Shown here one piece after another: positions 2,110 through 45,883 of a stretch of 64,000 nucleotides of DNA (the first letter of the stretch is position 1; each line of letters starts with the position of its first letter). A program made the translations under genes and the position numbers. Below the pieces are notes generated by a model. That model saw only the letters and a list, made by a program, of their open reading frames with translations, was not told the origin of the DNA and did no database searches. Location: NCBI RefSeq assembly GCF_003018235.1, contig NZ_CP027439.1, one strand, 5' to 3'. This stretch comes from Escherichia coli (GTDB lineage: Bacteria; Pseudomonadota; Gammaproteobacteria; Enterobacterales; Enterobacteriaceae).

Positions 2110-2700
2110 TTCTTCTTTTTTCTGCTGTTCTGATTACTGCCTGTTTTGTTGTTCTCCTGCTTATGCCTTTTCCGGGCGTCCCCCTGGCGGGGCGGGCTGT
2201 CGTGAACGGAGCCAGCGAAGCTGTCTCCGCCCTGGCGGGCTTCCATCCCTGACGCGAAACCCCGGGCTTGCAGCGACCGTTCCGGTCGCGCCGCCTCTGT
2301 CGCGCCGTGGCCTGCGCTCCCGGCATCCCGGCAAAAGGCCGCCGGGATGTAAGGGGCAACGCCGTTTCGCAAACCGCGCTTCACGTCGTTGCGGCGGGTC
2401 CCTGTCCGTTGTTGTGTCCGGTGCCATTCACCTGTTTAAGCCCCTGTCGCCGGGGGCTGATACAGCCACAACCGTCTCCGCCAGTCCAGGGGTGAAATGT
2501 ACATCCCGCAAAACTTTTTGCCCAAAAGCAGGCAAAAACTTTTGCGGTCTGCCCCCGGACAGTCGTTTCCGGCCGTGGCAGTGATGCCCCTTGCGGCGAA
2601 GGTTCTCAAAAAGGTGATGGTGAATACCGGAGGGAACAAAAGGCAGGTCCCCGCAAAACGTCAAAACCGCGGCTCCCGAAACTCAAAAGATGATGGGGGC
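2110..2700 (+). promoter_or_regulatory. Frpo/ssi-like structured repeat, copy A (candidate single-strand promoter) upstream of ssb
   Basis: About 600 bp of GC-rich, hairpin-dense non-coding DNA ending just before the ssb RBS; paralogous to 7480..8125. Contains hairpin 2506..2547 (ccgcaaaactttttgcc/ggcaaaaacttttgcgg). Confidence 0.5.
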
Positions 2701-2728
2701 TGAAAACATCAACAGAAGGAGGCACATC

Positions 2729-3558
<830 letters not shown>

Positions 3559-3621
3559 GAGAGGTGCCGGACGGGAACGCGTCCGGCAGACATACAACCA
3601 TCCCGGTCAAAGGAGAAATAT

Positions 3622-5580
3622 ATGTCAGTTACAGAGTCTAAGACAAAAACGGAGCGTAAATCCAGCCGTAAACCTGCAAAAACGCAGGAAACAGTCCTGT
3701 CTGCCCTGCTGGCGCAGACGGAGGAAGTGAGCGTGCCGCTGGCCTCACTGATTAAATCACCGCTGAATGTGCGCACGGTGCCGTATTCTGCGGAGTCCGT
3801 CAGCGAACTGGCGGACTCCATTAAAGGCGTCGGCCTGTTACAGAATCTGGTTGTTCATGCCCTGCCAGGTGACCGTTACGGTGTCGCCGCAGGTGGTCGC
3901 CGACTGGCTGCACTCAACATGCTGGCAGAGCGTGGCATCATTCCGGCTGACTGGCCTGTCCGTGTGAAGGTCATTCCGCAGGAGCTGGCGACGGCGGCAT
4001 CAATGACTGAAAACGGTCATCGTCGGGATATGCACCCTGCTGAACAGATTGCCGGATTCCGCGCAATGGCGCAGGAAGGCAAAACACCTGCACAAATCGG
4101 TGATTTGCTGGGCTATTCACCCCGCCATGTCCAGCGAATGCTGAAACTGGCAGATCTTGCGCCTGTCATCCTCGATGCGCTGGCAGAAGACCGCATCACC
4201 ACCGAACACTGTCAGGCGCTGGCACTGGAGAACGACACCGCGCGTCAGGTGCAGGTGTTTGAAGCCGCCTGCCAGTCAGGATGGGGTGGAAAACCGGAAG
4301 TGCAGACCATTCGTCGTCTGGTGACCGAAAGTGAAGTGGCGGTGGCGGGGAACAGTAAATTCCGCTTCGTGGGGGCTGATGCCTTCTCGCCAGATGAACT
4401 GCGCACCGATTTGTTCAGCGACGACGAGGGTGGCTATGTGGACTGTGTTGCGCTCGATGTCGCCCTGCTGGAAAAACTCCAGGCTGTCGCAGAGTTCCTT
4501 CGGGAAGCCGAAGGCTGGGAATGGTGCGCCGGACGTATGGAGCCTGTTGGTGAGTGCCGTGAGGATGCCGGAACATACCGCTGTCTGCCGGAGCCGGAAG
4601 CGGTGCTGACGGAGGCGGAAGAAGAACGCCTGAACGAACTGATGGCACGTTACGACGCGCCGGAAAACCAGAGTGAGGAATCCGACCTGCTGGAAGCCGA
4701 AATGAAGCTGATGCGCTGCATGGCGAAGGTCAGGGCGTGGACGCCGGAGATGCGTGCCGGAAGTGGCGTGGTGGTGTCCTGGCGTTATGGCAACGTGTGT
4801 GTCCAGCGTGGTGTGCAGTTGCGCAGTGAGGATGATGTGGCTGATAACGATTACCGCACGGAACAGGTGCAGGAGAAAGCCTCAGTGGAGGAAATCAGTC
4901 TGCCGCTGCTGACGAAAATGTCCTCAGAGCGCACGCTGGCAGTCCAGGCGGCACTGATGCAGCAATCAGACAAATCCCTGGCACTTCTGGCATGGACACT
5001 CTGTCTGAATGTATTTGGCAGTGGAGCGTACAGCAATCCCGCCAGAATCCGCCTGGAATGTGAGCATTATTCGCTGACCAGCGATGCGCCGTCAGGGAAG
5101 GAAGGTGCCGCATTCATGGCGATGATGGCAGAAAAAGCCCGTCTTGCCGCCCTGCTGCCGGATGGATGGGCACGGGATATGACGACGTTCCTGTCACTCA
5201 GTCAGGAGGTGCTGTTATCACTGCTCAGTTTCTGCACCGCGTGCAGTATCCACGGTGTCCAGACCCGTGAGTATGGTCACACGTCACGCAGTCCGCTGGA
5301 TTCGCTGGAAAGCGCCATCGGCTTTCACATGCGCGACTGGTGGCAGCCGACAAAAGCAAACTTCTTCGGACACCTGAAAAAGCCGCAGATTATCGCAGCC
5401 CTGAATGAGGCAGGACTGTCCGGTGCTGCACGGGACGCGGAGAAGATGAAGAAAGGCGATGCGGCTGAACATGCAGAGTTCCACATGAAAGACAACCGCT
5501 GGGTGCCTGGCTGGATGTGTGCACCACGCCCACAGACGGATGCCACTGAACGCACCGATAACCTGGCTGATGCCGCCTGA
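3622..5580 (+). CDS. ParB-like nuclease-domain protein (leading region)
   Basis: 652-aa ORF whose N-terminal region has a ParB/Srx-like fold signature (LLQNLVVHALPGDRYGVAAGGRRLAALNM); RBS AAGGAG upstream. Confidence 0.7.
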   Translation: MSVTESKTKTERKSSRKPAKTQETVLSALLAQTEEVSVPLASLIKSPLNVRTVPYSAESVSELADSIKGVGLLQNLVVHALPGDRYGVAAGGRRLAALNMLAERGIIPADWPVRVKVIPQELATAASMTENGHRRDMHPAEQIAGFRAMAQEGKTPAQIGDLLGYSPRHVQRMLKLADLAPVILDALAEDRITTEHCQALALENDTARQVQVFEAACQSGWGGKPEVQTIRRLVTESEVAVAGNSKFRFVGADAFSPDELRTDLFSDDEGGYVDCVALDVALLEKLQAVAEFLREAEGWEWCAGRMEPVGECREDAGTYRCLPEPEAVLTEAEEERLNELMARYDAPENQSEESDLLEAEMKLMRCMAKVRAWTPEMRAGSGVVVSWRYGNVCVQRGVQLRSEDDVADNDYRTEQVQEKASVEEISLPLLTKMSSERTLAVQAALMQQSDKSLALLAWTLCLNVFGSGAYSNPARIRLECEHYSLTSDAPSGKEGAAFMAMMAEKARLAALLPDGWARDMTTFLSLSQEVLLSLLSFCTACSIHGVQTREYGHTSRSPLDSLESAIGFHMRDWWQPTKANFFGHLKKPQIIAALNEAGLSGAARDAEKMKKGDAAEHAEFHMKDNRWVPGWMCAPRPQTDATERTDNLADAA

Positions 5581-5634
5581 TGAACAACCACACCGCCCCG
5601 CCGGAGACGGGGCGGCAGCAAGGGAGATACCGTG

Positions 5635-6069
5635 ATGAAAACTGAACTGACCCTGAATGTATTACAGACCATGAACGCACAGGAATATGAAGATATCCGG
5701 GCTGCCGGAAGTGATGAACGCCGTGAGCTGACTCACGCCGTGATGCGGGAGCTGGATGCGCCGGATAACTGGACGATGAACGGCGAGTACGGCAGCGAGT
5801 TTGGCGGCTTTTTCCCCGTCCAGGTCCGTTTCACGCCTGCCCACGAACGTTTTCACCTGGCGTTATGTTCACCGGGCGATGTCTCTCAGGTCTGGGTGCT
5901 GGTTCTGGTGAATGCCGGTGGTGAGCCGTTTGCGGTGGTTCAGGTACAGCGGCGGTTTGCACCGGAAGCCGTCAGCCATTCACTGGCACTGGCGGCGTCA
6001 CTGGATACGCAGGGGTACAGCGTTAACGACATCATCCATATCCTGATGGCGGAAGGAGGTCAGGTATGA
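5635..6069 (+). CDS. psiB: Plasmid SOS inhibition protein B
   Basis: 144-aa product starting [25 protein letters not shown], matching PsiB in length and sequence. Confidence 0.9.
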
Positions 6070-6785
6070 GCGTACGTTCACAGGCACTGGTTCCCCTCAG
6101 CACAGAGCAACAGGCCGCATGGCGGGCGGTGGCGGAGACAGAAAAACGCCGCCATCAGGGTAACACGCTGGCGGAATATCCGTATGCGGGGGCGTTTTTC
6201 CGCTGTCTGAACGGAAGCCGCAGGATATCGCTGTCTGACCTGCGATTTTTCATGCCGTCCCTGACCGCAGAAGAACTGCACGGCAACCGTCTTCAGTGGC
6301 TGTATGCAGTCGATGTGCTGATTGAAACACAGGGCGAGGTCTGCCTCCTTCCCCTTCCCGGTGATGCAGCAGAGCGGTTGTTTCCGTCGGTGCGGTTTCG
6401 TGTCAGGGAGCGCAGTCGCCATAAATCCGCGCTGGTCATGCAGAAGTACAGCCGCCAGCAGGCACGGGAGGCAGAGCAGAAAGCCCGTGCGTACCAGGCG
6501 CTGGTCGCTCAGGCTGAAATCGAACTGGCATTCCATTCGCCGGAAACAGTCGGAAGCTGGCATGCACGCTGGAGTGACCGGGTGGCAGAGCATGACCTGG
6601 AAACCCTGTTCTGGCAGTGGGGCGAGCGTTTTCCGTCACTGGCCGGAATGGAACGCTGGCAGTGGCAGGATATGCCGTTCTGGCAGGTTATTGCGGAAGC
6701 CAGTCTTGCAGCAAGAGAGGCCGGTCACGCTGTCCGTGAGATGGAGCGGTGGATGGTGCCGAACAAACTCCGGGAGGCTGCGTGA
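6066..6785 (+). CDS. psiA: Plasmid SOS inhibition protein A
   Basis: 239 aa, start overlaps the psiB stop (ATGA); conserved psiB-psiA operon arrangement. Confidence 0.85.
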
Positions 6786-6929
6786 TGCGGCAACAATCAC
6801 ACAGATTACCCGTAAACAGCCTGAATGAGCGGGTTATTTTCAGGAAAAGTGAGTGTGGTCAGCGTGCAGGGATATGGGCTATGATGTGCCCGGCGCTTGA
6901 GGCTTTCTGCCTCATGACGTGAAGGTGGT

Positions 6930-7010
6930 TTGTTGCCGTGTTGTGTGGCAGAAAGAAGATAGCCCCGTAGTAAGTTAATTTTCATTAACCACCACGAGGC
7001 ATCCCTATGT
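6930..7010 (-). ncRNA. sok: Sok/FlmB-like antisense RNA of the hok-type killer locus (approximate position)
   Basis: Placed from the hok/sok paradigm: antisense to the leader and mok start upstream of hok. No promoter or ends were mapped. Confidence 0.3.
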
Positions 7011-7219
7011 CTAGTCCACATCAGGATAGCCTCTTACCGCGCTTTGCGCAAGGAGAAGAAGGCCATGAAACTACCACGAAGTTCCCTTGTCTGGTGTGTG
7101 TTGATCGTGTGTCTCACACTGTTGATATTCACTTATCTGACACGAAAATCGCTGTGCGAGATTCGTTACAGAGACGGACACAGGGAGGTGGCGGCTTTCA
7201 TGGCTTACGAATCCGGTAA
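7007..7219 (+). CDS. mok: Mok/FlmC-like overlapping reading frame (modulation of killing)
   Basis: 70-aa ORF overlapping hok in a different frame, as in hok/sok and flm loci. Confidence 0.6.
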
Positions 7220-7223
7220 GTAG
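7065..7223 (+). CDS. hok: Hok/FlmA-family type I toxin
   Basis: 52-aa peptide [52 protein letters not shown], typical Hok/Gef family; followed by GC-rich hairpins (fbi/terminator-like) at 7225..7330. Confidence 0.88.
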
Positions 7224-7479
7224 CAACCTGGAGGCGGGCGCAGGCCCGCCTTTTCAGGACTGATGCTGGTCTGACTACTGAAGCGCCTTTATAAAGGGGC
7301 TGCTGGTTCGCTGGTAGCCCCTTTCTCCTTGCTGATGTTGTACGGGCATGAACAACCTGACTTCAGGAAGATCGTTTCCCTTCAGGAACGGGGATGAACG
7401 CGCGCCTGCGGCGCCCGTTCTTTTCCCCCGCCTTCTCTGGTTATGGCCTGTCAGAAATCACATCACCTTCCCTGTGATT

Positions 7480-8125
7480 ATTCTCTTTTTCTTCCTGCTC
7501 TGATTCTGACTACTGCAGTGTTGTCCTGTCTGCTAGGCGCACCTTCGGCTCCCGGCTGCCTGGCGGCATCCGGTCGTCAGGCCCGACTCCGACAGGCAGC
7601 TGCTGGCGCACCTGCCAGTCTCCGCCGAACCCGCTGGCGCGGTTTCGGGCTGTCGCTACGGTCCGATGCGTGAAAACCACAGGCTTGCAGCGACCGTTCC
7701 GGTCGCGCCGCCTCTGTCGCGCCGTAGCCTGCGCTCCCGGCATCCCGGCAAAAGGCCGCCGGGATGTAAGGGGCAACGCCGTTTCGCAAACCGCGCTTCA
7801 CGTCGTTGCGGCGGGTCCCTGCCCGTTGTTGTGTCCGGTGCCATTCACCTGTTTAAGCCCCTGTCGCCGGGGGCTGATACAGCCACAACCTGCCGCACTG
7901 ACTGTCCAGGGTAAATGAACAGCCCACAAAATTTTTTACCCAAAACCCGGTAAAAAATTTTGCGTTCTGCCCAGGACAGGTGCGTCAGGCCGTGGCAGTG
8001 ATGCCCCTTGCGGCGAAGGTTCTCAAACAGGTGATGGTTAATACCGGAGGGAACAAAAGGCAGGTCCCCGCAAAACGTCAAAACCGCGGCTCCCGAAACT
8101 CAACAGATGATGGGGGCTGAAAACC
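7480..8125 (+). promoter_or_regulatory. Frpo/ssi-like structured repeat, copy B, upstream of the orf95-like gene
   Basis: Paralogue of 2110..2700 with long identical blocks (7683..7897, 7985..8125). Hairpin 7925..7964 (cacaaaattttttacc/ggtaaaaaattttgcg) carries compensatory changes relative to copy A. Confidence 0.5.
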
Positions 8126-8137
8126 AGAGAAAGCAGG

Positions 8138-8425
8138 ATGAGTACCCGAAATATCCACGTTAACACCGCGTCGTACACGCTTCTTGTTGCCGGGAAGAAA
8201 AAAAACACCGGGGAAGAGTGGGACGTCCTGGAATTCAGCAGCCTGACTGAGCTGAAAAAATATCGCAAAAGCCACCCGGAAAAGATGGCCTTCAGCTATA
8301 GCTACGCGCTCAGCCAGGGTGTGGATACGCAGTTCCGCCATATCAACATTGCGGAAGCTGATCACTTCAAACAGTTCCTGCGTCAGATTAAGCGTGCCGG
8401 CCTCGATATCCGGGCGATCTGCTGA
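8138..8425 (+). CDS. Leading-region protein, orf95-like
   Basis: 95-aa ORF directly downstream of Frpo-like copy B. Confidence 0.6.
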   Translation: MSTRNIHVNTASYTLLVAGKKKNTGEEWDVLEFSSLTELKKYRKSHPEKMAFSYSYALSQGVDTQFRHINIAEADHFKQFLRQIKRAGLDIRAIC

Positions 8426-8542
8426 CCGGATGTGATGAATATCCCTCCTGATTGTTGCAATGTTGTTAATGGAGAACGGGGGGATGATATTAAGCGGAAA
8501 AATTTTTTATTAAATTTATTCTTTCATAAAGGAGTAGCTGTT

Positions 8543-9364
8543 ATGCGATTAGCTTCCCGTTTTGGTCGGTATAATTCCATCCGCCGTGAACGTCCTTTAA
8601 CGGATGATGAATTAATGCAGTTCGTGCCTTCGGTATTTTCCGGTGATAAACATGAGTCCCGGAGTGAACGTTATACGTATATTCCAACAATCAATATCAT
8701 CAATAAGTTACGTGATGAAGGTTTCCAGCCATTCTTTGCCTGTCAGAGTCGGGTTCGTGATTTGGGGCGTCGGGAATACAGTAAATATATGTTACGTCTT
8801 CGTAGGGAAGGGCATATTAACGGGCAGGAAGTTCCTGAAATTATCCTGCTTAATTCACATGATGGTTCATCCAGTTATCAGATGATCCCGGGAATTTTTC
8901 GTTTTGTCTGCACAAATGGCCTGGTGTGCGGAAATAATTTTGGCGAAATCCGCGTTCCACATAAAGGTGATATTGTCGGGCAGGTTATCGAGGGAGCGTA
9001 TGAAGTGCTCGGTGTCTTTGATAAGGTCACTGATAATATGGAGGCAATGAAAGAAATTCATCTTAACAGTGACGAGCAACATTTATTTGGCAGAGCTGCC
9101 CTGATGGTCAGGTATGAAGATGAAAATAAAACGCCGGTGACGCCTGAACAGATAATTACTCCCCGTCGTCGGGAGGATAAACAGAACGATCTCTGGACAA
9201 CCTGGCAGCGGGTTCAGGAGAATATGATAAAAGGTGGATTATCGGGGCGAAGTGCCTCCGGGAAAAATACCAGGACAAGAGCCATTACAGGTATTGATGG
9301 TGATATAAGAATCAACAAAGCATTATGGATGATTGCCGAACAGTTCAGGGAGTGGAAGTCATGA
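8543..9364 (+). CDS. Leading-region protein, orf273-like (DUF932-type)
   Basis: 273-aa product from internal start MRLASRFGRY; size and position match the F-like orf273. Confidence 0.6.
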   Translation: MRLASRFGRYNSIRRERPLTDDELMQFVPSVFSGDKHESRSERYTYIPTINIINKLRDEGFQPFFACQSRVRDLGRREYSKYMLRLRREGHINGQEVPEIILLNSHDGSSSYQMIPGIFRFVCTNGLVCGNNFGEIRVPHKGDIVGQVIEGAYEVLGVFDKVTDNMEAMKEIHLNSDEQHLFGRAALMVRYEDENKTPVTPEQIITPRRREDKQNDLWTTWQRVQENMIKGGLSGRSASGKNTRTRAITGIDGDIRINKALWMIAEQFREWKS

Positions 9365-9660
9365 TAATATAAGTAAAGCCCCGAAAAATTTTTCGGGGCT
9401 TTACTTATATTATCATCCTGCGGCATTGCTATGTCGTCTGATATGCCTCAATTTCATCAACTGGCTTTTCGGTAGTATGTAAATATTGTGCCCGCGAAAA
9501 ATGGTCTGGCAGGAGGCTGCGCAGTTACCGGATATATATAAGATGGGTTCCCGCTTTGCGGGGCTTCGGCCAGTCAGTATTGTCACTCATATGATATTTT
9601 TGTGTGTGGCCTTCCATGCCGCTTTTGCGGCATAACCGATATCTGACAATGTCTGTAAGA

Positions 9661-10170
9661 TTAATTGTTCTGCACGCTGTTAATTTCCGGAAGTGATTTC
9701 TTCGTGGTCGGAACCTGGATGCCTTTACTGCTCTTTATCCCGGTATAAATCCGGTAAACCTCTGATGCGTAGGCAAGACGTCTCTGGTTCTGGCGTTCGG
9801 TCTTCCTGAATCCAGCATTGTATGCACCAACGGCCTCCCAGGAGACGCCCCATTTTTTAAAGGCTATTGCCAGATAATAAGCACCGGTATAAATGTTCAT
9901 GCAGGGATCTGTTGTCAGATGTTCCGGCTTAATTCCATAGCGGGCCAGTTCGTTAAAATGCTGGGAATCTACCTGCATCAGTCCGCTGCCATATCCCGTT
10001 ACCGGATTAATACCGATGGCATTAACCCGGTAACGGGATTCTTTCCATGATATTGCTCTCAGTAAATCAGGATCTATTTTGTAATCCCGGCCTGCAAGAT
10101 CAAAGCAATCAGTGGCATGGCAGATCTCATTTATAAACATCAGGCAGATGGCTAACATCCATTTTTTCAT
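9661..10170 (-). CDS. Lytic transglycosylase (orf169 / gene 19 family, VirB1-like)
   Basis: 169 aa with signal peptide [12 protein letters not shown] and transglycosylase motifs ([24 protein letters not shown]); RBS AGGTGG. Confidence 0.85.
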
Positions 10171-10239
10171 TTTTCCACCTCTGGTGACTTTATCCGTAAA
10201 TAATTTAACCCACTCCACAAAAAGGCTCAACAGGTTGGT

Positions 10240-10535
10240 GGTTCTCACCACCAAAAGCACCACACCCCACGCAAAAACAAGTTTTTGCTGATTTTTCTTT
10301 ATAAATAGAGAGTTATGAAAAATTAGTTTCTCTTACTCTCTTTATGATATTTAAAAAAGCGGTGGTACTGACTATTTTTATAAAAAACATTATTTTATAT
10401 TAGGGGCGCTGCTAGCGGCGCGGTGTGTTTTTTTATAGGATAACGCCAGGGGCGCTGCTAGCGGTGCGTCCCTGTTTGCATTATGAATTTTAGTGTTTCG
10501 AAATTAACTTTATTTTATGTTCAAAAAAGGTAATC
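10240..10535. other. oriT: nic region, inverted repeats and direct repeats consistent with TraM binding sites
   Basis: Minus strand reads GGTGGTGAGAACCACC...TTTGCGTGGGGTGTGGTGCTTTTGGTGG (F-type nic motif, nick near 10261/10262); direct repeats GGGGCGCTGCTAGCGG at ~10403 and ~10451; AT-rich tracts. Confidence 0.8.
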
Positions 10536-10539
10536 TCTA

Positions 10540-10923
10540 ATGGCTAAGGTGAACCTGTATATCAGCAATGATGCTTATGAAAAAATAAATGCGATTATTG
10601 AGAAGCGTCGACAGGAAGGGGCAAGGGAAAAAGATATCAGTTTTTCAGCAACAGCTTCAATGCTTCTTGAACTGGGGCTTCGTGTACATGAGGCTCAGAT
10701 GGAGCGTAAAGAGTCTGCATTTAATCAGACTGAGTTTAATAAATTGCTTCTTGAATGCGTTGTAAAAACACAATCATCAGTAGCGAAAATTTTGGGTATT
10801 GAGTCTCTCAGTCCTCATGTCTCCGGAAATCCAAAGTTTGAATATGCCAATATGGTTGAAGATATCAGGGAGAAGGTATCATCTGAGATGGAGCGATTTT
10901 TTCCAAAAAATGATGATGAATAA
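10540..10923 (+). CDS. traM: Relaxosome accessory protein TraM
   Basis: 127 aa, MAKVNLYISNDAYEKINAIIEKRRQEGAREKDISFSATASMLLELGLRV. Confidence 0.93.
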   Translation: MAKVNLYISNDAYEKINAIIEKRRQEGAREKDISFSATASMLLELGLRVHEAQMERKESAFNQTEFNKLLLECVVKTQSSVAKILGIESLSPHVSGNPKFEYANMVEDIREKVSSEMERFFPKNDDE

Positions 10924-11039
10924 AAGAAATTTGACTTCGTTCAAATATCAGAGTTTTTATGATTTAAAAGGGTGACAGTACGAAAGATAATTAGTATATT
11001 AATTACGTGGTTAATGCCACGTTAAAATTTGAATTTGAA

Positions 11040-11115
11040 AATCGCCGATGCAGGGAGTTCACGTCTCCCTGCATCGACTGTCCATAGAATCCTTTGTGAG
11101 GAGGTTCCTATGTAT
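11040..11115 (-). ncRNA. finP: FinP-like antisense RNA opposite the traJ leader (approximate)
   Basis: Stem-loop GATGCAGGGAG...CTCCCTGCATC (11047..11075) plus a second stem spanning the traJ RBS and start; position follows the FinOP paradigm. Ends not mapped. Confidence 0.4.
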
Positions 11116-11799
11116 CCGATGGATCGTATTCAACAAAAACATGCTCGTCAAATAGATCTGCTGGAAAATCTGACGGCAGTTATTCAGGATTATCCAAATC
11201 CAGCCTGTATCAGGGACGAAACTGGAAAATTTATTTTTTGCAATACGCTGTTTCATGAGTCATTTCTTACACAAGATCAAAGTGCTGAAAAATGGCTTCT
11301 GTCGCAGAGAGATTTTTGTGAATTGATCTCTGTCACAGAGATGGAAGCATACAGGAATGAGCATACGCATCTTAATCTTGTAGAGGATGTTTTTATTCAG
11401 AACAGATTCTGGACAATATCTATTCAGTCATTTCTTAATGGACACAGAAATATCATTCTGTGGCAATTTTATGATGCTGCTCATGTTCGTCATAAAGACA
11501 GTTATAATCAAAAAACGATTGTCAGTGATGATATCAGAAATATAATCAGAAGAATGAGTGATGATTCTTCTGTATCATCATATGTAAATGATGTCTTTTA
11601 CTTATATAGCACCGGAATCAGTCATAATGCTATAGCAAGAATATTAAACATATCCATCTCCACATCAAAGAAACACGCGTCTCTGATATGCGACTACTTC
11701 TCTGTTTCTAATAAAGATGAGTTAATCATCTTACTCTACAATAAAAAGTTTATTCATTATTTGTACGAGAAGGCTATGTGTATCATAAATACGCGTTAA
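11110..11799 (+). CDS. traJ: Transfer operon activator TraJ
   Basis: 229 aa from ATG at 11110 with RBS GAGGAGG; lies between traM and traY. Confidence 0.8.
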   Translation: MYPMDRIQQKHARQIDLLENLTAVIQDYPNPACIRDETGKFIFCNTLFHESFLTQDQSAEKWLLSQRDFCELISVTEMEAYRNEHTHLNLVEDVFIQNRFWTISIQSFLNGHRNIILWQFYDAAHVRHKDSYNQKTIVSDDIRNIIRRMSDDSSVSSYVNDVFYLYSTGISHNAIARILNISISTSKKHASLICDYFSVSNKDELIILLYNKKFIHYLYEKAMCIINTR

Positions 11800-16318: not shown

Positions 16319-16625
16319 TATTAATGTTATTACAGCCCTCTCTGTGCCGGGTAAAACCGTGTCAGATGATTTTATTCATGCTGTTCTCAGTAACTGCGCC
16401 ACAAGAATCGTACTTCCTGCACCGGAGAAATTCGGTTCTGAGTCATTGCCGCACAATTTTAATATGGCTGCTGTCGGTGTGATGAAGAAGGGTATGTCGA
16501 TGAGCTTATTTTCTTCTCCGGGGCATATTGTGGTTGCCGGACAATCCGGTGACGGAAAATCTGTTCCGGTGAAAGAACTAATCGACAGAATTATTCAGAA
16601 ATATAAGGAACCCTTCGATGAATAA
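16305..16625 (+). CDS. trbD: TrbD
   Basis: ORF from internal ATG 16305 (GGAG RBS) overlapping the traP 3' end; position-based call. Confidence 0.6.
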   Translation: MNMRNINVITALSVPGKTVSDDFIHAVLSNCATRIVLPAPEKFGSESLPHNFNMAAVGVMKKGMSMSLFSSPGHIVVAGQSGDGKSVPVKELIDRIIQKYKEPFDE

Positions 16626-27482: not shown

Positions 27483-27600
27483 GTCATATAAAACGGTAAT
27501 AAAAACCATACAAAATAATGAGGTTGAACTGATTAATATCACACAAACGCGAATATTACAGACATAAATACTCTCATGTAAATAATAACCGGAGTTTAAC

Positions 27601-28709: not shown

Positions 28710-30082
28710 TGCCACGCATTAAACCTCTTCTGGTTCTTTGTGCTGCTTTACTGACGGTCACACCCGCAGCGTCAGCGGATGTGAACAGCGACATGAATCA
28801 GTTCTTTAACAAGCTGGGCTTCGCCTCCAATACCACACAGCCGGGCGTCTGGCAGGGGCAGGCCGCCGGTTATGCTTACGGTGGCTCCCTGTATGCCCGT
28901 ACTCAGGTCAAAAATGTTCAGCTGATTTCCATGACGCTGCCGGATATCAATGCCGGATGTGGCGGCATCGACGCCTATCTCGGCTCGTTCAGTTTTATTA
29001 ATGGCGAGCAGCTGCAGCGTTTTGTTAAGCAGATTATGAGCAATGCTGCCGGTTACTTTTTTGACCTTGCCCTGCAGACAACGGTGCCGGAAATCAAAAC
29101 CGCAAAAGACTTCCTGCAGAAAATGGCAAGCGACATTAACAGTATGAACCTCAGTTCCTGCCAGGCGGCACAGGGGATTATCGGCGGGCTCTTCCCCCGG
29201 ACGCAGGTGTCCCAGCAGAAAGTCTGTCAGGACATTGCCGGTGAGAGCAATATTTTTGCTGACTGGGCGGCTTCCCGGCAGGGATGTACCGTTGGCGGTA
29301 AATCTGACAGCGTCAGGGATAAAGCCAGCGACAAGGATAAGGAGCGGGTGACCAAAAACATTAACATCATGTGGAATGCGCTTTCCAAAAACAGAATGTT
29401 TGACGGCAACAAAGAGCTGAAAGAGTTTGTGATGACGCTGACCGGCTCACTGGTGTTTGGTCCCAACGGCGAAATCACACCGCTGTCAGCCAGAACCACT
29501 GACCGCTCAATTATCCGGGCCATGATGGAAGGCGGCACAGCAAAAATTTATCACTGCAACGATTCTGATAAATGCCTGAAAGTGGTGGCAGACACACCGG
29601 TGACCATCAGCCGGGATAATGCACTGAAGTCTCAGATTACTAAACTTCTGGCCAGCATTCAGAACAAGGCGGTCAGTGACACGCCTCTGGATGACAAGGA
29701 AAAAGGCTTTATTTCCAGTACCACCATCCCCGTCTTCAAATACCTGGTTGACCCGCAGATGCTCGGTGTTTCCAACAGTATGATTTACCAGCTGACGGAC
29801 TATATCGGTTACGACATCCTGCTGCAGTACATTCAGGAGCTGATACAGCAGGCCCGGGCGATGGTGGCCACAGGAAATTATGACGAAGCAGTTATCGAAC
29901 ATATTAACGACAACATGAATGATGCCACCCGGCAGATTGCGGCGTTTCAGTCACAGGTGCAGGTACAGCAGGATGCGCTGCTGGTTGTCGATCGTCAGAT
30001 GAGCTACATGCGTCAGCAGCTTTCCGCCCGCATGCTCAGTCGTTACCAGAACAACTATCACTTCGGAGGGAGCACGCTGTGA
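28706..30082 (+). CDS. traH: TraH
   Basis: 458 aa with signal peptide. Confidence 0.92.
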   Translation: MMPRIKPLLVLCAALLTVTPAASADVNSDMNQFFNKLGFASNTTQPGVWQGQAAGYAYGGSLYARTQVKNVQLISMTLPDINAGCGGIDAYLGSFSFINGEQLQRFVKQIMSNAAGYFFDLALQTTVPEIKTAKDFLQKMASDINSMNLSSCQAAQGIIGGLFPRTQVSQQKVCQDIAGESNIFADWAASRQGCTVGGKSDSVRDKASDKDKERVTKNINIMWNALSKNRMFDGNKELKEFVMTLTGSLVFGPNGEITPLSARTTDRSIIRAMMEGGTAKIYHCNDSDKCLKVVADTPVTISRDNALKSQITKLLASIQNKAVSDTPLDDKEKGFISSTTIPVFKYLVDPQMLGVSNSMIYQLTDYIGYDILLQYIQELIQQARAMVATGNYDEAVIEHINDNMNDATRQIAAFQSQVQVQQDALLVVDRQMSYMRQQLSARMLSRYQNNYHFGGSTL

Positions 30083-32904
30083 ATGAAGTTTATGTGATTG
30101 CCGGTGGTGAGTGGTTGCGGAATAACCTGAACGCCATTGCCGCTTTTATGGGAACCAGGACGTGGGATTCCATTGAAAAAATTGCGCTCACATTGTCTGT
30201 TCTCGCGGTGGCCGTGATGTGGGTACAGCGGCACAACGTGATGGATTTGCTGGGCTGGGTGGCCGTGTTTGTGCTTATCAGCCTGCTGGTTAATGTCCGC
30301 ACATCGGTGCAGATTATTGATAACAGTGACCTGGTCAAAGTTCACCGGGTGGATAATGTGCCGGTCGGACTGGCGATGCCACTTTCACTGACGACCCGTA
30401 TCGGGCATGCAATGGTGGCCAGTTACGAGATGATCTTCACGCAACCGGACAGTGTCACCTACAGCAAAACGGGGATGCTGTTTGGCGCAGAACTGGTATC
30501 AAAAAGCACCGACTTTTTGTCCCGGAATCCGGAAATCGCCAATCTTTTCCAGGATTATGTGCAGAACTGCGTGATGGGGGATATTTACCTGAACCACAAA
30601 TATACGCTGGAGGAGCTGATGGCCTCCGCTGATCCCTACACGCTGATTTTTTCCCGCCCCAGCCCGCTGCGGGGCGTTTATGACAGCAATAATAATTTCG
30701 TAACCTGTAAGGACGCTTCGGTTTCGCTGAAAGACAAGCTGAATCTGGACACACAGAGTGGCGGAAAAACCTGGCATTATTATGCCCAGCAGCTATTTGG
30801 CGGACGCCCTGATCCTAACCTGCTGTTCAGTACGCTGATTGGCGACAGTTACAGTTACTTCTATGGCTCAAGTAAATCAGCCAGCCAGATCATCCGCCAG
30901 AATGTCACCATCAATGCGCTGAAGGAGGGGATCACCAGTTATGCCGCACGTAATGGTGATTCGGCCAGCCTGGTGAATCTGGCCACCACATCATCGATGG
31001 AGAAGCAACGTCTGGCACATGTCTCCATCGGTCATGTGGCGATGCGGACACTGCCCATGACGCAGACCATCCTGACGGGGATCGCCATCGGTATTTTCCC
31101 GCTCCTGGTACTGGCGGCTGTCTTCAACAAACTGACGCTGTCCGTCCTGAAAGGCTATGTGTTTGCCCTGATGTGGTTGCAGTCATGGCCAATGTTGTAC
31201 GCCATTCTGAACAGCGCCATGACATTTTATGCAAAGCAGAATGGTGCACCGGTGGTGCTCTCGGAAATTTCACAGATACAGCTGAAATACTCCGATCTGG
31301 CTTCCACTGCCGGGTATCTTTCCATGATGATCCCGCCATTATCCTGGATGATGGTCAGGGGGCTCGGGGCAGGATTTTCCAGTGTGTACAGCCATTTCGC
31401 TTCCTCTGCTATCAGCCCGACCGCCAGTGCAGCAGGCAGTGTGGTTGACGGTAATTACTCCTACGGCAACATGCAGACGGAGAACGTTAACGGCTTCAGC
31501 TGGAGCACCAACAGCACCACGTCGTTTGGTCAGATGATGTACCAGACCGGCAGTGGCGCAACCGCCACACAGACCCGTGACGGTAATATGGTGATGGATG
31601 CAAGCGGAGCGATGTCCCGGTTACCGGTCGGCATCAATGCAACGCGTCAGATTGCGGCGGCACAACAGGAAATGGCCCGGGAAGCATCGAACAGAGCAGA
31701 AAGTGCCCTGCATGGGTTCAGCAGCAGTATTGCCAGTGCCTGGAACACGCTCAGTCAGTTTGGTTCTAACCGGGGGAGCAGTGATTCTGTCACCGGTGGT
31801 GCTGACAGCACGATGAGTGCTCAGGACTCCATGATGGCCAGCCGTATGCGCAGTGCAGTGGAAAGCTATGCGAAGGCGCATAATATCAGTAATGAGCAGG
31901 CGACTCAGGAACTGGCATCAACAAGTACCAGGCTATCTGGTGGAATGTATGCTGATGCTCATGCTGAATGGGGGGTTAAACCTAAAATTCTTGGTGTTGG
32001 TGGTGGGGTAGGCATCAGAGGTGGATTTAAGGGGAGCCTGGATGCAACGGATGATGACTCACATTCAGCAAGTAGTGGCAGCAGGGCTACCCATGATGCT
32101 CGCCATGATATCGATGCTAAAGCCAGTAAGGACTTTAAAGAGGCCAGCGATTACTTTACCAGTCGCAAGGTCAGTGAATCCGGCAGCCATACGGACAATA
32201 ATGCCGATTCCCGTGTGGACCAGCTGTCTGCAGCCCTGAACTCAGCAAAACAGAGTTACGACCAGTACACGACGAATATGACCCGCAGCCATGAATATGC
32301 TGAAATGGCATCCCGTACTGAAAGCATGAGTGGGCAGATGAGTGAAGACCTGTCGCAACAGTTTGCACAGTATGTGATGAAACACGCGCCGCAGGATGCC
32401 GAAGCTATTCTGACAAACACCAGTTCACCGGAGATTGCAGAACGCCGTCGGGCGATGGCATGGTCTTTTGTTCAGGAACAGGTGCAGCCTGGTGTTGATA
32501 ATGCCTGGCGTGAATCCCGTGGGGATATTGGTAAAGGAATGGAGAGCGTACCTTCGGGTGGTGGCAGCCAGGATATTATTGCTGACCATCAGGGGCATCA
32601 GGCCATTATTGATCAAAGAACGCAGGACAGTAATATCCGTAATGATGTAAAACATCAGGTTGATAATATGGTCACAGAATATAAAGGGAATATCGGAGAT
32701 ACTCAGAATAGTATTCATGGCGAAGAAAATATTGTAGACAGACAATATTCAGAGTTAAAAAATAATCACAAACAGGAAGAAATTCAACAAAACAACAGAT
32801 ATAATGAAGAAAATAAACGACAGAAATTAATGCCAACACCGTCTGAAGATGCGTTAAAACAGATGGTGGATGATAAGAAAGAACGATTGAAGGGGCCATT
32901 ATGA
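30079..32904 (+). CDS. traG: TraG (mating-pair stabilisation / entry exclusion)
   Basis: 941 aa, polytopic N-terminal domain. Confidence 0.92.
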   Translation: MNEVYVIAGGEWLRNNLNAIAAFMGTRTWDSIEKIALTLSVLAVAVMWVQRHNVMDLLGWVAVFVLISLLVNVRTSVQIIDNSDLVKVHRVDNVPVGLAMPLSLTTRIGHAMVASYEMIFTQPDSVTYSKTGMLFGAELVSKSTDFLSRNPEIANLFQDYVQNCVMGDIYLNHKYTLEELMASADPYTLIFSRPSPLRGVYDSNNNFVTCKDASVSLKDKLNLDTQSGGKTWHYYAQQLFGGRPDPNLLFSTLIGDSYSYFYGSSKSASQIIRQNVTINALKEGITSYAARNGDSASLVNLATTSSMEKQRLAHVSIGHVAMRTLPMTQTILTGIAIGIFPLLVLAAVFNKLTLSVLKGYVFALMWLQSWPMLYAILNSAMTFYAKQNGAPVVLSEISQIQLKYSDLASTAGYLSMMIPPLSWMMVRGLGAGFSSVYSHFASSAISPTASAAGSVVDGNYSYGNMQTENVNGFSWSTNSTTSFGQMMYQTGSGATATQTRDGNMVMDASGAMSRLPVGINATRQIAAAQQEMAREASNRAESALHGFSSSIASAWNTLSQFGSNRGSSDSVTGGADSTMSAQDSMMASRMRSAVESYAKAHNISNEQATQELASTSTRLSGGMYADAHAEWGVKPKILGVGGGVGIRGGFKGSLDATDDDSHSASSGSRATHDARHDIDAKASKDFKEASDYFTSRKVSESGSHTDNNADSRVDQLSAALNSAKQSYDQYTTNMTRSHEYAEMASRTESMSGQMSEDLSQQFAQYVMKHAPQDAEAILTNTSSPEIAERRRAMAWSFVQEQVQPGVDNAWRESRGDIGKGMESVPSGGGSQDIIADHQGHQAIIDQRTQDSNIRNDVKHQVDNMVTEYKGNIGDTQNSIHGEENIVDRQYSELKNNHKQEEIQQNNRYNEENKRQKLMPTPSEDALKQMVDDKKERLKGPL

Positions 32905-33410
32905 TCACTCACTATGATATAAAAATGGAGATGCAAAAACTAAAGGAGGTACTCTCTGTAGAGGGTGTTAATATCCCATCATTATTACAAGTCATAAAAC
33001 CGGGAACTTATGTGTTTTTATGGGCTTTATTATGGCCAACTTTTCTGCGTTTAGTATCGGTTAAAAGTGATGTCAGGGATGTTGGCTTTGATATATGTGC
33101 TAGTGGAATGATGGGGTTCCTGCTTTTTGTGGCTATTACAAATGGAATGATGTTATACCTTGCGATTCCTGATAGTTTCAGAAAGGATTCAAAAATAATA
33201 AATTTTATGTATTCTAAGAGTAAGACATATATTTTGTTGTTTTTGATTGTTTTTTCTATGGTTTCATTTATGCATTCTATCTTATATGTTTTTGCACTAA
33301 TGATTACATTCATATTATTTTTCTTGGTGTATACCATAGATATAAATCGTTATAATCTCTCAGCTATAGCCTCAGTAATAGGACTGTTCAAAAAAGAGTC
33401 TGTTAGTTAA
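32901..33410 (+). CDS. traS: Entry exclusion protein TraS
   Basis: AT-rich, hydrophobic 169-aa ORF between traG and traT. Confidence 0.75.
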
Positions 33411-36570: not shown

Positions 36571-39500
36571 TGATGAGTATCGCGCAGGTCAGATCGGCCG
36601 GAAGTGCCGGTAACTATTATACCGACAAGGATAATTACTATGTGCTGGGCAGCATGGGAGAACGCTGGGCCGGCAGGGGGGCTGAACAGCTGGGACTGCA
36701 GGGCAGTGTCGATAAGGATGTTTTTACCCGTCTTCTGGAGGGAAGGCTGCCGGACGGAGCGGATCTAAGCCGCATGCAGGATGGCAGTAACAGGCATCGT
36801 CCCGGCTACGACCTGACCTTCTCCGCCCCCAAAAGTGTCTCCATGATGGCCATGTTAGGTGGCGATAAGCGCCTGATTGATGCACATAACCAGGCCGTGG
36901 ACTTTGCTGTTCGTCAGGTGGAGGCGCTGGCCTCCACACGGGTGATGACGGACGGACAGTCAGAAACGGTGCTGACCGGTAATCTGGTGATGGCACTGTT
37001 TAACCACGACACCAGTCGCGATCAGGAACCACAGTTACACACGCATGCGGTGGTGGCTAATGTCACGCAGCATAACGGCGAATGGAAGACACTGAGCAGT
37101 GACAAAGTGGGGAAAACGGGGTTCATTGAGAATGTGTACGCTAATCAGATTGCCTTTGGCAGGCTCTACCGGGAAAAACTGAAAGAGCAGGTTGAGGCGC
37201 TGGGCTATGAAACCGAAGTGGTGGGTAAGCACGGTATGTGGGAGATGCCGGGCGTACCGGTGGAGGCCTTTTCCGGACGCTCACAGGCAATCCGGGAGGC
37301 CGTCGGGGAAGATGCCTCGCTGAAATCCCGGGATGTGGCGGCACTGGATACGCGAAAATCCAAACAGCACGTCGATCCTGAAGTCAGAATGGCTGAATGG
37401 ATGCAGACGCTGAAGGAAACCGGGTTCGACATCCGGGCATATCGTGACGCGGCGGATCAGCGTGCGGAGACCCGCACGCAGGCGCCCGGGCCAGCTTCAC
37501 AGGACGGGCCGGATGTGCAGCAGGCGGTGACACAGGCGATTGCCGGATTAAGTGAACGAAAAGTGCAGTTCACGTATACGGATGTGCTGGCCAGGACAGT
37601 CGGCATACTGCCGCCGGAAAATGGTGTGATTGAACGGGCACGCGCCGGTATCGATGAGGCCATCAGCCGTGAGCAGCTTATCCCCCTCGATCGTGAGAAG
37701 GGGCTGTTCACGTCCGGGATTCATGTGCTCGATGAGCTGTCAGTCCGGGCGCTCAGTCGTGACATCATGAAACAGAACCGGGTGACCGTACATCCGGAGA
37801 AAAGTGTCCCCCGGACGGCCGGTTACAGCGATGCCGTCAGTGTTCTGGCACAGGATCGCCCGTCGCTGGCCATTGTGTCCGGGCAGGGCGGTGCTGCCGG
37901 GCAGCGTGAGCGGGTGGCTGAACTGGTCATGATGGCCCGGGAGCAGGGGCGGGAGGTGCAGATTATCGCTGCTGACCGTCGTTCGCAGATGAACCTGAAG
38001 CAGGATGAACGGCTGTCCGGTGAGCTGATAACCGGACGTCGTCAGCTGCAGGAGGGCATGACCTTCACACCGGGCAGTACCGTTATCGTTGACCAGGGCG
38101 AAAAACTCTCCCTGAAAGAGACGTTAACCCTGCTGGACGGTGCCGCACGTCATAACGTACAGGTCCTGATAACCGACAGCGGGCAGCGAACCGGTACAGG
38201 CAGTGCGCTGATGGCCATGAAGGATGCCGGGGTGAACACATATCGCTGGCAGGGGGGAGAACAGCGACCGGCCACCATCATCAGTGAACCGGACCGTAAT
38301 GTCCGCTATGCCCGGCTGGCAGGAGATTTTGCGGCCAGCGTGAAAGCCGGAGAAGAGAGCGTGGCACAGGTCAGCGGGGTACGGGAACAGGCCATACTGA
38401 CACAGGCCATTCGCAGTGAGCTGAAAACACAGGGCGTGCTCGGACACCCGGAGGTAACCATGACCGCCCTCTCACCGGTCTGGCTGGACAGCCGGAGCCG
38501 TTATCTGCGGGATATGTACCGTCCGGGGATGGTGATGGATCAGTGGAACCCGGAGACACGCAGTCATGACCGCTATGTTATCGACCGGGTGACGGCGCAG
38601 AGTCACAGCCTGACCCTGCGGGATGCGCAGGGTGAAACGCAGGTGGTGCGTATTTCCTCCCTGGACAGCAGCTGGTCGCTGTTCCGGCCGGAAAAAATGC
38701 CGGTGGCAGACGGCGAGCGTCTGAGGGTGACAGGGAAAATTCCCGGACTCCGCGTCTCCGGCGGTGACCGCCTGCAGGTGGCATCCGTCAGTGAAGATGC
38801 GATGACGGTTGTTGTGCCGGGGCGGGCTGAACCGGCCACCCTGCCTGTGGCTGATTCACCGTTCACGGCACTGAAGCTGGAGAATGGCTGGGTGGAAACG
38901 CCCGGGTATTCCGTCAGCGACAGTGCGACGGTTTTTGCCTCCGTCACACAGATGGCAATGGACAACGCCACCCTGAACGGTCTGGCCCGCAGCGGTCGTG
39001 ATGTCCGGCTGTATTCCTCTCTGGATGAAACCCGTACTGCGGAAAAACTTGCCCGCCATCCCTCCTTTACGGTGGTTTCTGAGCAGATAAAGACGCGGGC
39101 CGGTGAGACACCGCTGGAAACTGCTATCAGTCTGCAGAAAGCCGGGCTTCACACGCCGGCACAGCAGGCCATTCATCTGGCCCTTCCTGTGCTGGAAAGT
39201 AAAAACCTGGCCTTCAGCATGGTGGACCTGCTGACAGAGGCGAAGTCGTTTGCTGCAGAAGGAACCAGTTTTATCGACCTGGGAGGGGAAATCAATGCGC
39301 AGATAAAACGCGGTGATTTACTGTATGTGGATGTGGCAAAAGGCTATGGCACAGGCCTGCTGGTTTCCCGTGCGTCGTATGAGGCAGAAAAGAGCATTCT
39401 TCGCCATATTCTCGAAGGTAAGGAGGCGGTCACGCCGCTGATGGAGAGAGTACCTGGCGAACTCATGGAGAAACTGACATCAGGACAGCGCGCCGCCACC

Positions 39501-42606: not shown

Positions 42607-42660
42607 CGGGTGTGGTATCTTTGGCCGCAAGAGGATGATTCGTCAGAGGCAGAACACAGC

Positions 42661-43221
42661 ATGACAGAGCAGAAGCGACCGGTACTGACACTGAAGCGGA
42701 AAACAGAAGGGGGGACGCCTGTCCGCAGCCGGAAAACCATCATCAATGTCACCACGCCACCAAAATGGAAGGTGAAAAAGCAGAAGCTGGCCGAGAAAGC
42801 AGCCCGGGAAGCAGAGCTGGCGGCCAAAAAAGCGCAGGCCAGACAAGCGCTGTCCATTTATCTGAACCTGCCCACGCTGGATGAGGCTGTGAACACCCTG
42901 AAGCCCTGGTGGCCGGGATTATTTGACGGTGACACGCCCCGGCTTCTGGCCTGCGGTATCCGGGACGTGTTACTGGAAGACGTGGCGCAGCGGAATATCC
43001 CGCTCTCGCATAAAAAACTGCGCAGGGCGCTGAAGGCCATCACCCGTTCAGAAAGCTATCTTGGTGCCATGAAAGCCGGTGCCTGCCGGTATGACACGGA
43101 AGGGTATGTGACGGAGCATATTTCTCAGGAGGAGGAAGCGTATGCGGCAGCGCGTCTGGATAAAATCCGCCGCCAGAACCGGATAAAGGCAGAACTTCAG
43201 GCCGTGCTTGATGAGAAATAA
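42661..43221 (+). CDS. finO: RNA chaperone FinO
   Basis: 186 aa from [17 protein letters not shown], matching FinO. Confidence 0.9.
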
Positions 43222-43356: not shown

Positions 43357-43569
43357 ATGAATGGATTCAGAAACAGTTCACGGAACGGTCAGGTCTGGCG
43401 TTACCAGCGTGCCGGCGGGCGGGCCGTTATTCTGGAGGTCAGTGGACGCTGGATGGAAGCGGCAGAAGCATGGCGACGGGCTGCCTGCATAGCTCCCCGG
43501 ACAGACTGGCAACAGTTTGCCCGGAAAAGGGCTGAACACTGCCACCGGCGCTGCCGGGGAAGGGTGTAA
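43357..43569 (+). CDS. Hypothetical small protein
   Basis: 70-aa ORF preceded by GGGAGGAG RBS; no recognisable motifs. Confidence 0.35.
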   Translation: MNGFRNSSRNGQVWRYQRAGGRAVILEVSGRWMEAAEAWRRAACIAPRTDWQQFARKRAEHCHRRCRGRV

Positions 43570-43814
43570 CGAAAAAAGCAGCCTTCATTACACCAGAAGT
43601 CAGAAGGCTGAAAGGAGTTTATGAGATTTGCTTTTTTTAATATCCGGTCGGGCAGTATGACCGGACAGTTCTGAGTAGCACAGAGTTTTTTCCGTATTAA
43701 GTCGTGATTTTATATTTTGTGATTTATTTCACAAAATAAGGTGTTATTCATTGTGTGCTGCAATATTCAGGATGCCTGAAATACAGGTGCCATTTATCTG
43801 ATATGGAGAATAAC

Positions 43815-45764: not shown

Positions 45765-45855
45765 CAGGAGCCAGAAAAGTGAAAACCCCGATAATCTTCT
45801 TTAACTTTGGCGAGTGAGAAAGATTATCGGGGCTAACAAGAAACTGCATAGAAGC
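45765..45855 (-). ncRNA. copA: CopA (inc) antisense RNA of the repA1 leader (approximate ends)
   Basis: Long imperfect hairpin 45786..45832 (ccccgataatctt...aagattatcgggg) with a loop containing GCGCCAAAG on the minus strand, matching the CopA/CopT stem-loop II arrangement between copB and tap. Confidence 0.5.
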
Positions 45856-45883
45856 TGTTGCTCTATGCGGGGAGTATAGTTAT

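Follow-up and report, generated by a model that had tools for sequence, protein, structure and literature searches.

The closest described systems to the locus reported here are the oriT regions of F (pOX38, NZ_OQ683454.1; NC_002483) and of the IncFII plasmids R100 and R1. Binding of F TraI has been studied with a 22-nt oligonucleotide, in which cleavage falls at GTGT^GGT (PMC2504302). The F relaxosome examined by cryo-EM was built on a fragment running from -27 to +143 that contains the "full sbmC site" (PMC12117103 and its preprint); within it, the region from -8 to -27 holds the site used by TraI in its helicase mode, and further towards traM the order of sites is IHFb-sbmB (PMC12117103). 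The TraM sites of F are made up of A(G/C)CG(G/C)T motifs, and their order is established (PMC3159463). sbmA and sbmB overlap the traM promoter and autoregulate traM, and of the three sites it is sbmC that has been described as mattering most for F conjugation (PMC3159463, PMC7690428), TraM bound at sbmC stimulating relaxation through TraI and being essential for efficient mobilisation (PMC7690428). According to the account of Fu et al. (1991) given in PMC12117103, the sbm sites are needed for efficient transfer and not for relaxosome formation, and transfer falls 10,000-fold when all of them are lost. As summarised there and in PMC3159463, Fu et al. engineered nested deletions that entered cloned F oriT fragments from one end; when TraM sites were lost from the traM side, nicking and relaxosome formation stayed intact and transfer was lowered.

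The window, by which we mean the whole 64,000-nucleotide stretch of Escherichia coli DNA that was analysed, is a segment of a mosaic F-like plasmid, comprising a leading region, oriT, a complete tra operon, finO, a replicon and cargo. For the greater part of the tra operon the DNA is 95-98% identical to that of F, with about 92% identity across traH-traG, and the replicon, in a further difference from F, is of the IncFII type (CopA RNA, RepA). Rfam matches above the gathering score include CopA, the RNA that controls IncFII copy number (45777-45866), and the antisense RNAs AS-pc02 (43466-43651), AS-traI (39419-39495) and AS-traG (30798-30883), all on the minus strand. Beyond the replicon lies a cargo block (49272-61038) containing a tannase/feruloyl-esterase-like fragment, a DUF554 membrane protein, an IS3-family transposase, a UbiX/UbiD-type (VdcB/VdcC-like) decarboxylase pair with a divergent LysR regulator, and a trimeric autotransporter adhesin beside an OmpA-like TpgA-type protein. 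Our reading of the transfer origin, to which we give a probability of roughly 80%, is that it is an F-type oriT (MOBF relaxase, MPF_F pilus) arranged as in F, R1 and R100, from which a 44-bp deletion has removed sbmC, with nicking predicted to be normal and the coupling of TraM to TraD predicted to be weakened.

The F-type oriT and its missing TraM site

Positions 9661-10535 cover the interval between the divergent genes orf169 (minus strand) and traM (plus strand), a textbook setting for an F-type oriT. The gene order DUF932(+)/SLT(-)/oriT/traM(+) is that of pOX38/F, R100 and R1, and it recurs in all 30 of the loci retrieved via the exact TraM and SLT proteins. The 64 kb contain a single copy of the 22-mer bound by F TraI, TTTGCGTGGGGTGTGGTGCTTT, which matches perfectly at 10254-10275 on the minus strand (TTTGCGTGGGGTGT^GGTGCTTT); none of 100 shuffled sequences contained a match, even with 3 mismatches allowed. 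The published cleavage position (PMC2504302) places the predicted nick on the minus strand between 10262 and 10261, and the nic allele is that of F (GGGGTGT) and not that of R100 (GTAGTGT, in full GTAGTGT^GTGGTGC). Between the orf169 ATG and F +99, a stretch that includes nic, the window aligns with F without a break and differs at a single base (10311), so the minus-strand motif picked out by the sequence-only reading coincides exactly with the functional nic. Immediately 3' of the predicted nick on the transferred strand, an inverted repeat read directly from the minus strand, TTGGTGGT-GAGA-ACCACCAA (10235-10254), is the same as in F and falls in the TraI helicase-mode region (PMC12117103).

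Alignment to F also locates the remaining elements. The IHFa site (F +23 to +60), its position transferred from PMC12117103, corresponds to 10284-10321 and contains the variant base at 10311, which is common to most natural alleles. It is followed by the TraY-binding region (sbyC/sbyA), which in F occupies the stretch between IHFa and sbmC (PMC12117103); it is placed by position at 10322-10357 with putative boundaries and is the same as in F; between nic and the TraM sites the predicted IHFa and TraY regions (10284-10357) are thus collinear with F apart from that one common polymorphism. The A+T-rich IHFb region, also with putative boundaries, is collinear with F at 10365-10401 and now sits 44 bp nearer nic. 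Two TraM sites come next on the plus strand, sbmB at 10402-10424 and sbmA, with an upstream half-site, at 10442-10468, each supported by the repeat itself, the motif map and the alignment to F. Their cores are 21-nt direct repeats carrying A(G/C)CG(G/C)T motifs, AGGGGCGCTGCTAGCGGCGCG (10402-10422) and AGGGGCGCTGCTAGCGGTGCG (10448-10468), which are 95% alike and 46 bp apart; a degenerate 20-mer matches only these two places in the window (0.01 expected by chance). The upstream half-site of sbmA reads AACGCCAG here and ACCGCTAG in F, and the two differences of sbmA from F are natural polymorphisms, present in 5/20 and 12/20 other loci. The traM promoter and leader region (10469-10539, plus strand) is identical to that of F and leads into traM (10540-10923, plus strand), whose 127-aa product has a Tra_M domain (E = 7e-55) and is 98.4% identical to F TraM. 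The public collection lists this exact protein in 109 indexed blocks, and it is a common allele that occurs with intact sbmC. On the 3' side of traM are FinP and the traJ leader (Rfam), followed by traJ, traY, traA and the rest of the tra operon.

R100 and R1 share the gene order and spacer length class of the window; their TraY and TraM site sequences differ from it, with about 80% identity from 10365 onward. Several public contigs (L040, L043 and L046) agree with the window at 99.9% identity over positions 1 to about 10306 and at only about 82% from 10365 onward, where they have different TraM sites and a different traM. This pattern indicates a putative recombination breakpoint within oriT (10306-10365), separating the part with nic and IHFa from the part with the TraM sites.

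The sequence-only reading had reported TraM-site-like direct repeats, and both are real; that they represent two sites of an expected three went unremarked, and the deletion responsible, which alignment to F reveals, was overlooked. F has the same nic 22-mer, flanking genes and strands, and the same inverted repeat, IHFa, TraY region, IHFb, sbmB, sbmA and traM leader, with 4 substitutions in the 369 shared bases. It also keeps a palindromic block, +100 to +143 counted from nic towards traM as in the cryo-EM paper, and the window lacks it: judged by alignment both to F and to the closest natural alleles, 44 bp are gone from between AAAAAAGC and GTACTGAC. In F the deleted DNA forms a hairpin of 14-17 bp (-21.5 kcal/mol, z = -5.75) and, by the motif map, holds all the TraM hexamers of sbmC except one. 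Since the missing DNA is F +100 to +143, the deletion takes out the palindromic core of sbmC, the TraM site nearest nic. Alignments and the motif map show that what is left of sbmC is a single AGCGGT motif, which lies with the junction at 10358-10364; with GGTG on either side of the missing segment, the break point may be set at any position from 10360|10361 to 10364|10365. Replication slippage classically acts on palindromes bordered by short direct repeats, here of 4 bp, and the deletion would most likely have arisen by slippage between the two GGTG copies. The locus is an F oriT by descent and in nearly all the features examined, the third TraM site being the one defining element that it lacks, and it is best described as a natural sbmC-deletion allele of a known system.

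Predicted effect on transfer

sbmA, sbmB, the IHF and TraY regions and every tra gene remain in the window. The cognate TraI, TraY, TraM and TraD are encoded in cis, full length and 97.3, 99.2, 98.4 and 98.6% identical to their F counterparts, and all the tra proteins are full length and 80-100% identical to those of F except TraS (28.6% over most of its length) and TrbF (a match of 66.7% confined to the C-terminal part). Two differences in gene content from F were also seen, an extra 104 bp in the trbD region (16489-16592) and the absence, at 27532-27536, of the roughly 276 bp in which F carries artA. The ORF in the traS position (32901-33410), with its low identity to F TraS, and TraG (30079-32904), which is 89% identical, together suggest that entry-exclusion specificity may differ from that of F.

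The state of finO is a further point of difference. In F itself, finO is disrupted by an insertion sequence. In the window, the finO reading frame (42610-43221) is uninterrupted and encodes FinO_N and ProQ/FinO domains, and FinP RNA was recognised on the minus strand at 11038-11116; FinOP fertility inhibition is therefore probably active. With full-length tra proteins, an intact finO and FinP, both the trans-acting machinery and its normal repression should work.

In the reading that we favour, TraI, helped by IHF and TraY, would nick the minus strand between 10262 and 10261, the nicked strand would be transferred 5' to 3', and the step affected would be the coupling of the relaxosome to TraD through TraM at sbmC, which would be weakened. 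Judged from the elements present, nicking and pilus functions should be normal, and our best estimate is a cis-acting reduction of self-transfer. The tra genes show none of the decay that would be expected if transfer had been lost long ago, which fits a very recent event as well as a harmless one.

A harmless event would mean that the deletion is functionally silent or compensated, TraM at sbmB and sbmA, now 44 bp nearer nic, still docking the relaxosome to TraD. We consider this unlikely, while recognising that several observations speak for it. sbmA is the TraM site of highest affinity, and both it and sbmB bind two TraM tetramers apiece (PMC3159463); the core relaxosome assembles without TraM (PMC12117103); all the tra genes are intact; and the allele is found in two non-identical assemblies (see below). 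Against it, the site lost is the one described as the most important of the three, and it is not replaced like for like, the centre of sbmB lying, by the motif map, about 36 bp further from nic after the deletion than the centre of sbmC did before it. The spacer between orf169 and traM, 369 bp here, measures 412-415 bp in each of 33 other loci, which include F-, R100- and R1-type oriT alleles and all keep the block. Moreover, a 44-mer centred on the junction had no match in 72,556 PLSDB plasmids and none in 5,426 complete E. coli genomes. Phase may matter: insertions and deletions made by Fu et al. in the central A+T-rich region reportedly changed transfer periodically, as if the phasing of the nicking and transfer domains counted, and 44 bp correspond to about 4.2 helical turns. 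The engineered deletions, as they are summarised in PMC12117103 and PMC3159463, were nested from one end of cloned oriT fragments, whereas the deletion in the window is internal and natural, affects sbmC alone and lies in a complete plasmid.

Two more specific outcomes seem to us to have rather little chance of being correct: that the sbmC-less oriT is transfer-proficient by virtue of shifted docking at sbmB and sbmA, or that the plasmid is a helper immobilised in cis whose fully working transfer apparatus serves only other replicons that bear an oriT.

Origin and distribution of the deletion

Among the close relatives are public draft assemblies with a natural F-type allele that keeps the 44 bp, GGTGTCGGCGCGGCTACAACACCGCGCCGACACCGCTTTATAGG. 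In four of them (L009, L012, L016 and L017) the spacer equals that of the window plus these 44 bp, with no mismatch, and L009 (GCA_020128995.1) and L012 (GCA_042693795.1) are 99.4-99.97% identical to the window over 5.4 kb. Because the spacers agree exactly but for the 44 bp and the flanks are so similar, the deletion must be recent. Compensating changes were sought by comparison with the other loci, and no base of oriT or the spacer was unique to the window. Such close relatives are available only as draft contigs, the best matches in PLSDB and among complete E. coli genomes being about 96.5% identical over 14-24 kb.

Searches with a 24-mer spanning the junction, TAAAAAAGCGGTGGTACTGACTAT, found no match in GTDB representative genomes and none in JGI metagenomes. 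A second carrier was found via the exact ParB-like protein: a draft assembly (GCA_038099465.1, contig ABRRUJ010000038.1; L047) has the same junction and matches the window from 2640 to 11580 with one substitution, at 3605 (1/8941 bases), far from oriT. The carriers therefore number at least two assemblies, a minimum in that the exact-protein look-up merges places with the same neighbouring proteins. The two may represent a single clone that was sequenced on two occasions.

The missing DNA is a strong hairpin, which some sequencing chemistries read poorly, and the junction is otherwise absent from the public collections searched. These facts would fit an assembly or sequencing artefact at a GC-rich palindrome, the real oriT being normal. 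We nevertheless regard an artefact as improbable, given that a second, non-identical assembly has exactly the same junction, that the clean GGTG/GGTG endpoints fit replication slippage and that the sbmC gap is the only indel of 6 bp or more relative to F that removes a palindrome. A systematic loss of hairpins was also considered and rejected; the other indels of at least 6 bp relative to F comprise a few short ones and gene-content differences of the trbD/artA type, and in none of them was a palindrome lost. We conclude that the deletion is genuine and heritable and that the allele belongs to a single rare lineage.

orf169 and the significance of the allele

slt, ygfA, gene 19, gene X and ORF169 are names of one gene (bioRxiv 10.1101/2024.03.20.585880). 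In R1, its product P19 has muramidase activity and contributes to transfer efficiency and to infection by RNA phage, according to PMC3245843, citing Bayer et al. (1995). In the window the gene occupies 9661-10170 on the minus strand and encodes a periplasmic lytic transglycosylase of the P19 type, 169 aa long and 97.5% identical to the F protein, with an SLT domain, of the goose-type lysozyme-like kind (PF01464, E = 4.9e-22, 78 bits), in which the catalytic Glu can be read from the translation in its E-S motif; the identity proposed by the sequence-only reading is borne out. The full minus-strand ORF extends over 9661-10263, and the classical 169-aa start is the ATG at 10170, 5 nt behind the Shine-Dalgarno sequence GAGGTGG. 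The 19 residues from this start look by eye like a signal peptide, consistent with an exported protein of about 19 kDa. Automatic, RefSeq-style annotation usually gives an SLT gene of 196-200 aa that begins at 10263 with a GTG codon straddling nic; since the 169-aa start has both a ribosome-binding site and an apparent signal peptide, this longer version has probably been extended too far. The DUF932 and SLT genes converge, and between them, immediately behind DUF932, there is a perfect long inverted repeat, TAAGTAAAGCCCCGAAAAATTTTTCGGGGCTTTACTTA (9372-9410), which resembles a terminator acting in both directions.

From nic (10262|10261) to the orf169 ATG (10170) the distance is 91 bp, in good agreement with the earlier figure of about 90 bp. 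By the ORF map, orf169 is divergent from traM and runs away from oriT into the leading region. The orientation, singled out beforehand for comparison with F and R1, is the same in F, R100 and R1; there is nothing unusual about it. The transferred strand is the minus strand, and its 5' end at 10261 leads into orf169, which is therefore the first gene into the recipient. Because the transferred strand has the sense of the orf169 mRNA, the gene is not transcribable from incoming single-stranded DNA; nor can read-through from the tra operon, which is encoded on the other strand, yield an orf169 mRNA.

Published work on F has dealt with this case. There, ygfA is opposite to the other leading genes and the T-strand is not its template; a YgfA-sfGFP signal appears only 10-20 min after conversion from single- to double-stranded DNA, and the other leading genes are expressed early from Frpo single-strand promoters (PMC9849209). 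The leading region of the window holds ssb, a ParB-like gene, psiB, psiA, hok/sok (sok antitoxin RNA, 6891-7067, plus strand, Rfam above gathering score) and two Frpo-like repeats. These repeats (2257-2707 and 7674-8124) are about 450 bp long, 92% alike, about 5.4 kb apart and on the same strand, upstream of ssb and orf95, and match the published Frpo2 and Frpo1 of F (92% identity, about 5 kb apart).

orf169 needs a double-stranded-DNA promoter of its own, with expression following synthesis of the complementary strand, and its product would act as a donor-side helper that opens the peptidoglycan for the transfer apparatus. A scan for sigma-70 promoters of orf169 gave no match of 9/12 or better. 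The weak matches consist of one of 8/12 (-35 TTGAGC at 10230-10225, -10 TAAATT at 10207-10202) and a second of 8/12 further upstream, and neither is evidence of a promoter. Expression by tra-operon read-through instead, which had been raised as a possibility and which the lack of a strong promoter consensus upstream of orf169 might seem to favour, is most improbable, as the gene is opposite traM-traX, a tra transcript extended around the plasmid would carry its antisense sequence, and the F YgfA fusion, whose timing was already published, appears after single- to double-strand conversion, as for an ordinary double-stranded-DNA promoter. The orientation question is already settled in the F literature.

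As described from its sequence at the outset, then, the locus is an ordinary, textbook F-type oriT, and the sbmC deletion is a small, probably degenerative novelty. Any practical consequence is limited to one rare lineage, and its interest is mainly for relaxosome researchers: with an F-like plasmid that is otherwise intact and naturally lacks sbmC, they have at hand a means of testing, in a native context, the share that the nic-proximal TraM site has in self-transfer. If coupling is weakened, the plasmid would transfer itself poorly and would still supply tra functions in trans; if instead the sbmC-less oriT proves transfer-proficient, the architecture of the relaxosome would be more plastic than deletion studies suggest. 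More generally, gene-based (MOB/MPF) typing can label a plasmid conjugative and fail to see a cis-acting defect that it carries.
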